A DNA stretch of 5,772 nucleotides from Escherichia coli (GTDB lineage Bacteria; Pseudomonadota; Gammaproteobacteria; Enterobacterales; Enterobacteriaceae). The position numbers were made by a program, and so were the translations under genes. Below are positions 1,509 through 1,794 of the stretch, piece after piece; within the stretch, counting starts at the first letter, position 1, and each line of letters opens with the position of its first letter. The notes beneath the pieces are model-generated. The model had not been told where the DNA came from. It did no database searches and saw nothing but the letters and a program-made list of their open reading frames with translations. The stretch lies in assembly GCF_050320075.1 (NCBI RefSeq), contig NZ_CP190025.1. One strand, given 5' to 3'.

Positions 1509-1570
1509 AACCATGAAAAATGGCAGCTTCAGTGGATTAAGTGGGGGGAATGTGGCCTGTACCATCTGGT

Positions 1571-1586
1571 TGCATAGGTATTCATA
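1571..1586. promoter_or_regulatory. ARG-box-like ArgR binding site within the cer accessory region
   Basis: TGCATAGGTATTCATA resembles the ArgR box consensus TGAAT-wwww-ATTCA, at the expected distance upstream of the Xer core. Confidence 0.55.
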
Positions 1587-1603
1587 CGGTTAAAATTTAT
1601 CAG

Positions 1604-1669
1604 GCGCGATCGCGGCAGTTTTTCGGGTGGTTTGTTGCCATTTTTACCTGTCTGCTGCCGTGATCGCGC
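1604..1669. repeat. 15-bp inverted repeat (GCGCGATCGCGGCAG / CTGCCGTGATCGCGC, one mismatch) with about 36-nt spacer inside the cer accessory region
   Basis: Direct inspection: arms at 1604..1618 and 1655..1669 are reverse complements except for one position. Could be a structured part of the cer-encoded Rcd small RNA or an architectural element; not resolved. Confidence 0.6.
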
Positions 1670-1794
1670 TGAACGCGTTTTAGCGGTGCGTACAATATTG
1701 TCGTTATGTTAAATGGTTTGGATGATCCCCCCATTTTCCACATTTGGTTGTGACGATTAAGATAAACTCGTCAGAATATTTGGGTGAGGAATAA

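Follow-up and report, generated by a model that had tools for sequence, protein, structure and literature searches.

The window, the whole 5,772-bp stretch of DNA analysed here, carries a cer-type multimer-resolution site that likely also recombines between ColE1-type plasmids by XerC exchange, with a second crossover swapping the cargo that lies beside it. This reading builds on three observations, namely the anatomy of the site, the point at which its homology to ColE1 breaks off, and one natural reciprocal recombinant in which a plasmid of the window type has been joined to a second plasmid. The window is a complete circular ColE1-type mobilisable plasmid with 100% identity to the E. coli plasmid NZ_CP047007.1. 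The relaxase gene mbeA spans the window ends, and mbeB (643-1161) and mbeD (1168-1401) are nested within it. The mob genes are followed by the cer region at about 1484-1714, a low-GC block, the replication control region with RNAI (4205-4310, minus strand), and then rop and mobC. The RefSeq record of the plasmid has no cer annotation. RefSeq also lists a 52-aa "replication initiation protein" at window 4332-4490 (minus strand), inside the RNA II/RNA I region, and its equivalents in the records of related plasmids; this is probably a spurious ORF call in the non-coding replication control region.

The Xer core was located by searching for GGTGCGTACAA-N8-TTATGTTAAAT with up to 3 mismatches. One site was found, at 1685-1714 on the plus strand and with 0 mismatches, and a match occurred in 0 of 200 dinucleotide-preserving shuffles. 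This single core reads GGTGCGTACAA-TATTGTCG-TTATGTTAAAT, with 22 of 22 arm positions matching and an 8-bp spacer. It was compared with the classical ColE1 cer of a colicin E1 plasmid (L003), whose core is GGTGCGTACAA-TTAAGGGA-TTATGGTAAAT. The XerC-binding arm (1685-1695, plus strand) matches the ColE1 cer arm exactly, as the original prediction had stated. Homology to ColE1 stops at the left border of the 8-bp central region (1696-1703, plus strand), where TATTGTCG and TTAAGGGA have 2 of 8 bases in common; the predicted difference in the central region is therefore real. The XerD-binding arm (1704-1714, plus strand) does differ from ColE1 cer by the single base that had been claimed, and this change, G to T, gives a dif-type arm identical to the XerD arm of E. 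coli K12 dif (PMC2731167). With the left 200 nt 99.5% identical to ColE1 and the right half different, the site is cer on its left and ceases to be so at the first or second base of the central region; judged by sequence, the window site itself is a hybrid of a ColE1 left half and a dif-type right half that goes with the cargo. About 12 different central regions occur among some 20 related plasmids, so that a divergent central region is the rule here and not an oddity.

The interval that first drew attention to the site, 1565-1760, takes in the core, an ARG-box-like sequence and the remaining part of the accessory region. The accessory sequences at 1484-1684 (plus strand) are identical to the colicin E1 plasmid at 199 of 200 nt (99.5%) and are 94-99% identical in six further backbones. 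By homology to ColE1 cer, this stretch is the predicted ArgR/PepA-binding region (PMC5357621, PMC2655662). The ARG-box-like sequence TGCATAGGTATTCA lies at 1571-1584 on the plus strand, some 100 bp away from the core. Compared with TGAAT-W4-ATTCA it shows 3 mismatches, a match that has no significance on its own, but it is invariant at the homologous position in every ColE1-type cer region aligned. By analogy with ColE1 cer, we take it to be the ArgR site. In ColE1 the accessory region also encodes Rcd. A 15-nt inverted repeat with arms at 1604-1618 and 1655-1669 (plus strand, 93% complementary) is conserved with ColE1 and may be the main Rcd hairpin, and given the 99.5% identity to ColE1, Rcd is probably kept in the cer of the window. 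As regards the Pcer promoter and the Rcd checkpoint RNA, a simple promoter scan found no site and Rfam found no family within 1484-1714.

In ColE1-like plasmids the orientation of cer is fixed relative to oriV, such that RNA II read-through reaches the ArgR side first (PMC2831885). With RNAI on the minus strand, RNA II is a plus-strand transcript and comes to 1484-1684 ahead of the core; the cer of the window obeys the orientation rule relative to oriV. The core, the accessory region and the orientation that characterise the cer family at the sequence level are all present, the accessory region by homology only, and recombination at the border between XerC arm and central region has taken place in the natural recombinant.

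This recombinant, pEC3-6 (NZ_CP060984.1, 8776 bp), contains two replicons and two cores. In core 1, the left flank and the XerC arm GGTGCGCGTAA of a 3003-bp ColE1-like plasmid are followed by TATTGTTG-TTATGTTAAAT and the cargo of the window. Core 2 is the counterpart, with a window-type left flank and GGTGCGTACAA followed by TGAGACG-TTATGGTAAAT and the right flank of the small plasmid. Each parent is also known as a free plasmid, the larger being p779-6 (5773 bp), which is 98.9% identical to the window, and the smaller pMB2666_4 (3003 bp). When the two were opened in silico at the border of XerC arm and central region and then joined reciprocally, the product equalled pEC3-6 across 8776 bp with 3 mismatches and 0 gaps. 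The crossover in pEC3-6 maps to three shared bases, AAT, which span the border between XerC arm and central region. At cer, the exchange made by XerC is the sole one catalysed by Xer recombinases, and processing of the Holliday junction falls to other host functions (PMC5357621). The parental central regions that took part in the pEC3-6 exchange are 8 and 7 bp long and also differ in sequence; because they are unlike in both respects, pEC3-6 represents a natural XerC-side exchange between heterologous sites. The resolved product of such a cointegrate, with the cargo of the window on the 3003-bp backbone, was absent from the 17 plasmids that carry the cargo.

Small multicopy plasmids are sometimes mis-assembled, and two other two-replicon records (L033 and L034) look like assembled dimers or partial duplications, so we considered whether pEC3-6 might be an assembly artefact that merges two co-resident plasmids. 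The likely place for a mis-join of this kind is the ori repeat of 688 bp with its 93% identity, and not two reciprocal 3-bp junctions; moreover, the sizes sum exactly (5773 + 3003 = 8776) and both junctions are clean hybrids. We therefore regard an artefact as very improbable and take pEC3-6 as a genuine recombinant.

pEC3-6 is the only hybrid cointegrate found; the other two-replicon records checked were L033, L034 and L037. Among the candidates for a second hybrid, NZ_CP146592.1 was rejected as a ColE1 homodimer and NZ_CP083894.1 because it looks like a partial duplication. L037, a metagenome contig (OGZL01003318.1, 11302 bp), was rejected since it has two parental cores and its joins lie away from them. 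It consists of a window-type plasmid with a normal core plus a second ColE1-like ori and a parental-looking core, GGTGCGCGCAA-TACGGGA-TTATGGTAAAT. A metagenome scan for the right half of the site with its flank gave a further contig (L036), in which the last 55 nt of the plasmid are joined at TACAA to a Firmicutes-like secreted-protein gene; it is absent from PLSDB and from E. coli genomes and was dismissed as a chimeric short contig and no recombinant.

The Klebsiella pneumoniae sister plasmid NZ_CP138690.1 matches the whole window at 100% and carries a 2.3-kb copy of ISKpn21 (5777-8055). The insertion is flanked by a 5-bp duplication, GCGGT, at window 1683-1687, which is the outer edge of the XerC arm, and it separates the core from the accessory sequences in this plasmid. 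ISKpn21 targets XerCD sites. It belongs to the ISAba32 subgroup of the IS1202 family, and elements of this subgroup insert 5-6 bp away from the XerC arm of such sites, always in the same orientation (bioRxiv 10.1101/2022.12.17.520857). The insertion is a second, independent sign of a live Xer site.

Central-region length and sequence affect the outcome of Xer recombination (PMC5357621), and one could suppose that the altered central region and XerD arm have abolished recombination, leaving a decayed cer relic in a plasmid that is stable by other means. This is hardly compatible with the site. Both arms match functional arms perfectly (XerC of cer, XerD of dif), the 8-bp spacer has the length found in cer, the accessory region retains its 99.5% identity to ColE1, and the site is kept in all sister plasmids. 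In addition, it has recombined in nature in pEC3-6 and is recognised by an IS that targets Xer sites. A relic is accordingly highly unlikely, and a working cer-type site is the reading that we follow below.

To locate where homology to other plasmids ends, positions 1500-1800 were compared by megablast with PLSDB. Matches were obtained in 1176 plasmids, only 9 of which cover at least 80% of the query. Alignment ends were tallied in 59 of the 1176 rows, spaced evenly down the ranking. The alignment ended at the end of the XerC arm (1695-1697) in 25 of these 59 rows and at the end of the XerD arm (1714-1716) in another 25, within the XerC arm (1685-1690) in 6, ahead of the core in 2, and at 1721, 7 nt past the XerD arm, in 1. 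None of the sampled alignments outside the cargo-bearing set went beyond 1721.

The eight closest backbones are 96-98% identical along the whole backbone and carry eight unrelated cargos: the Eco29kI restriction-modification system, two hypothetical genes, colicin E1, a GTPase with an EcsC-family protein, an EspF-like protein, a Dcm-type restriction-modification system, IS66, and colicin N. All of them agree up to GCGTTTTAGC-GGTGCG. Beyond that point they vary at XerC-arm positions 7-9 and in a central region of 7 or 8 bp, and any relationship ends with the last base of the XerD arm. Seven of the eight align to the window only from 4144-4146 round to 1714-1716. The expectation that cargo swaps in relatives break at the Xer core holds in this set, in which all eight backbones diverge within the core or at its end. 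The original prediction had placed the start of the low-GC cargo some 80 bp past the XerD arm, and this has to be corrected. Homology to other backbones ends at 1714-1716 or as early as 1696, so the roughly 80 non-coding bases past the XerD arm belong to the cargo, which extends from 1715 to 4145. GC content drops from 0.45-0.48 to 0.31-0.33 across 1700-1800.

Two groups of central regions behave differently with respect to this border. The central region TGCGACG is common to five plasmids with five cargos, each of which diverges directly past the XerD arm, and this pattern is the trace expected from exchange between sites with matching central regions. The exception is the sub-family with the central region TAYTGNCG, comprising the window, L009, L012 and L014, which shares about 12-13 nt past the XerD arm; some swaps therefore did not occur at the core. 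Separately, one E. coli strain has a nearly identical cer-like site (central region TACTGTCG) with its adjacent sequence on two plasmids, NZ_CP051731.1 (L012, at about 3002) and NZ_CP051728.1 (L014, at about 3003), the first a ColE1-type plasmid of 5.9 kb and the second an IncF plasmid of 189 kb, which suggests integration of a segment of a small plasmid into the large one.

Variation within the XerC arm adds a complication. Positions 7-9 of the arm (window 1691-1693) read TAC, TGT or CGT behind identical left flanks, and these triplets pair freely with varied central regions and cargos, independently of the left flank. In the metagenome contig L040, for example, GGTGCGTGTAA, which has the TGT triplet, precedes the window's own right half and cargo. 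Such free assortment requires an extra exchange in the highly conserved accessory region. It is not predicted by a model of pure XerC-site exchange unless homologous exchange also takes place in the accessory region.

On the other side of the cargo, homology to ColE1 plasmids resumes in the junction at 4146-4180 (plus strand), at AAAAGATCAAAGGATC..GATCCTTTTTTT, a hairpin that carries the -35 region of RNA II as judged from ColE1, and it does so at AAAAGATCAAAGGATC in every comparison made. In seven of the eight backbones with unrelated cargos the junction falls at about 4146 (4144-4146, within window 4139-4158), at the A-run of this hairpin. No Xer-like core is present at this junction, and in colicin plasmids the stop codon of the lysis gene abuts it. 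Because the ori-side junction is equally sharp in the absence of an Xer site, a sharp border by itself is no proof of Xer action; functional constraint together with tight packing can also produce sharp borders.

This observation speaks for the view that the window has a normal cer in which Xer had no part in the arrival of the cargo, and that cargos are replaced by illegitimate recombination or deletion and insertion in a dispensable interval whose borders look sharp only through selection on the sequence up to the XerD arm and up to the RNA II promoter hairpin. The lysis-gene stop codon at the ori-side border would be an instance of tight packing, and the 12-13 nt that L009, L012 and L014 share past the XerD arm also fit this view. 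What it leaves unexplained is the distribution of differences from ColE1, where 6 of 8 central-region bases differ against 1 of 200 adjacent bases, and the position of the break, which lies at the XerC cleavage border instead of past the XerD arm. Furthermore, pEC3-6 shows exchange at exactly that border in a plasmid of the window type. We consider cargo turnover free of Xer to be unlikely, and exchange at the XerC border followed by a second crossover remains our preferred reading. The original suggestion that Xer recombination may have delivered or shuffled the cargo is supported on three counts: the breaks in the eight backbones, the break from ColE1 at the border of XerC arm and central region, and pEC3-6.

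A cargo bounded by Xer sites on both sides would be a two-ended cassette, as in the pdif modules of Acinetobacter, or an integrated IMEX-like circle. Xer-bounded modules are indeed present in Acinetobacter plasmids (PMC7399989, PMC5790767), and the XerD arm of the window is of the dif type. That no second Xer-like core was obvious by eye had been remarked at the outset, and both the exact-arm search (up to 2-3 mismatches) and lenient scans bear this out. With 6-8-bp spacers and up to 6 of 22 arm mismatches allowed, the circular plasmid contains no second core, and at 7 of 22 mismatches the added matches were off-register copies of the 1685-1714 site. A direct repeat at the cargo ends (1715-1800 versus 4096-4160), noticed by eye, was rejected since 259 of 1000 shuffles score as high, which leaves the resemblance of the ends at chance level. 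Nor were Xer cores found beside homologues of the cargo genes in other genomes, so no donor site could be identified. Without a second core the cargo is not a two-ended cassette, and its delivery needs another crossover elsewhere, as exchange at the single cer core followed by a backbone crossover would provide; the two-ended alternative is extremely improbable.

One of the cargo-bearing plasmids, NZ_CP123200.1 (L010, 7528 bp), does have a second, different Xer-like core, GGTGCTGATAA-CGGATG-TTATGGTAAAT, at about 825-852 on the minus strand. This core sits between rop and ori in an insert of about 1.7 kb with two hypothetical genes. The same plasmid illustrates that the backbone is mosaic, as it has the cer, cargo and ori block of the window and a mob region that is only 82-85% identical. 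A further feature of the backbone is the stretch at about 4700-5100, from the origin to rop and near the expected oriT, which is rich in mismatches in every comparison, even against the 98.9% identical sister plasmid. Homology breaks within this stretch at 4964-4968 in L009, at 5103 in L010 and at 5068 in L037, which suggests a second recombination hot spot.

The cargo itself (1715-4145) has a GC content of about 31%, compared with 50-60% elsewhere in the plasmid, and is present in just 17 PLSDB plasmids. It contains an STP-like transporter gene (1795-2979, minus strand), a gene for a stand-alone class I aaRS-like protein of 296 aa (2940-3830, minus strand) and a tRNA-like gene (4007-4095, plus strand). 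The 296-aa ORF had no match in Pfam or NCBIfam; its homologues form 56 clusters, all of them lacking annotation, and elsewhere they have a transporter and a metallo-beta-lactamase-fold protein as conserved neighbours. RefSeq labels the tRNA-like gene as tRNA-Lys, and its anticodon is CUU; the body, in which the variable arm is long, base 73 is G and CCA is encoded, is tRNA-Ser-like. Related RNAs that share the acceptor stem are found directly upstream of the 296-aa gene homologue in four other kinds of locus. In a fifth kind, represented by the mouse plasmid L009, gene and RNA are about 180 nt apart and divergently transcribed, which is also the arrangement in the window. Two of the four kinds of locus have an 11-bp hairpin in place of the anticodon arm, and the differences between these two hairpins keep the pairs, as judged by eye; in a third kind the arm is apparently replaced by a GAAA-capped stem, the pairing again being read by eye. 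We read the tRNA-like RNA as a putative dedicated partner of the aaRS-like enzyme, and this cargo is a more unusual item than the cer site.

We propose the following mechanism. In plasmid dimers, ArgR and PepA would bind the accessory region of about 200 bp and wrap two directly repeated sites together; XerC and XerD would bind the 30-bp core, and XerC would exchange the top strands at the border of arm and central region. Host functions would then finish the Holliday junction, so that dimers become monomers. That host proteins bind and catalyse at the cer of the window is what its likeness to ColE1 cer leads us to infer. At low frequency, the same XerC exchange may take place when two ColE1-type plasmids share a cell, between the cer site of one and that of the other, and sites with unmatched central regions can recombine since no exchange beyond that on the XerC side is required. 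The outcome would be a cointegrate with two hybrid cores, as seen once in pEC3-6. Cargo-swapped monomers would then be released by a second crossover, located in the homologous ori or mob backbone or, as has been suggested by others, at oriT; in these monomers the central region and XerD arm stay with the cargo, and the accessory region and XerC arm with the mob side. We likewise infer this second crossover and the arrival of the window's cargo by the cer route.

An exchange of this kind accounts for three features of these plasmids: the cargo is always bounded by the XerC cleavage point on one side and the RNA II promoter on the other, the central region and XerD arm tend to go with it, and one core is left. 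A broader proposal is that the interval from the XerC cleavage point to the RNA II hairpin is a swappable one-site cassette throughout the ColE1 family, and that the tRNA-like/aaRS-like module of the window came by this route. XerC-only exchange would come first, with central regions free to differ (8 versus 7 bp), and a backbone crossover would complete the swap. We advance this family-wide form tentatively, rating its chances somewhat below even.

These results provide a clean natural case of recombination between plasmids at the XerC cleavage point in spite of the different central regions of their cer sites. They help to explain how unrelated cargos, among them colicins, restriction-modification systems and others, come to occupy one slot of near-identical ColE1 backbones, and they give a rule for splitting backbone from cargo, with one cut where the XerC arm meets the central region and the other at the RNA II promoter hairpin. 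Practical uses are the annotation of cer and the tracing of module pick-up by small mobilisable plasmids. The accepted picture of Xer recombination and ColE1 evolution is unchanged.

Compared with ColE1 cer, the site of the window has the same XerC arm, an 8-bp spacer, an accessory region of 99.5% identity, the same position past mbeD and the same orientation relative to oriV. It differs in the central region, which is TATTGTCG and not TTAAGGGA, in the XerD arm, which is TTATGTTAAAT and not TTATGGTAAAT, and in the unrelated DNA to its right. The Acinetobacter pdif modules resemble it in that XerC/D sites border exchangeable cargo (PMC5790767, PMC7399989, PMC11705084). Unlike the window, whose cargo has a single site, pdif modules have two flanking sites and lack ArgR/PepA accessory regions. 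The VGJphi IMEX at Vibrio dif1 is similar in using XerC exchange without central homology on the XerD side or XerD catalysis (PMC5357621). However, IMEX integrate into chromosomal dif and end up flanked by two sites, whereas here the exchange is between plasmids and one site is kept. As the cargo of the window is not flanked by two sites, it is neither a pdif-type module nor an integrated IMEX.

Recombination at cer/Xer sites and oriT has been proposed as a driver of the evolution of ColE1-like plasmids, in work cited in PMC8683028 and PMC6764390, and the remark that cargo exchange at Xer sites is already known for small plasmids agrees with such published work. What is new is the cer allele of the window; Xer-driven plasmid recombination itself has been published before. 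Tran et al. 2012 reportedly described how qnrB19 plasmids evolve through recombination at their cer/Xer and oriT sites; for pECL18 and pKPN2, Zakharova et al. 2002 are said to have done the same. The plasmids studied here are like those in forming cointegrates and exchanging modules through Xer sites, of which pEC3-6 is a clean example. They are unlike them in that the cargo of the window is a tRNA-like plus aaRS-like module and not a resistance or restriction-modification gene, and in that both parents and the reciprocal product are available here, with the crossover mapped to a 3-nt interval.
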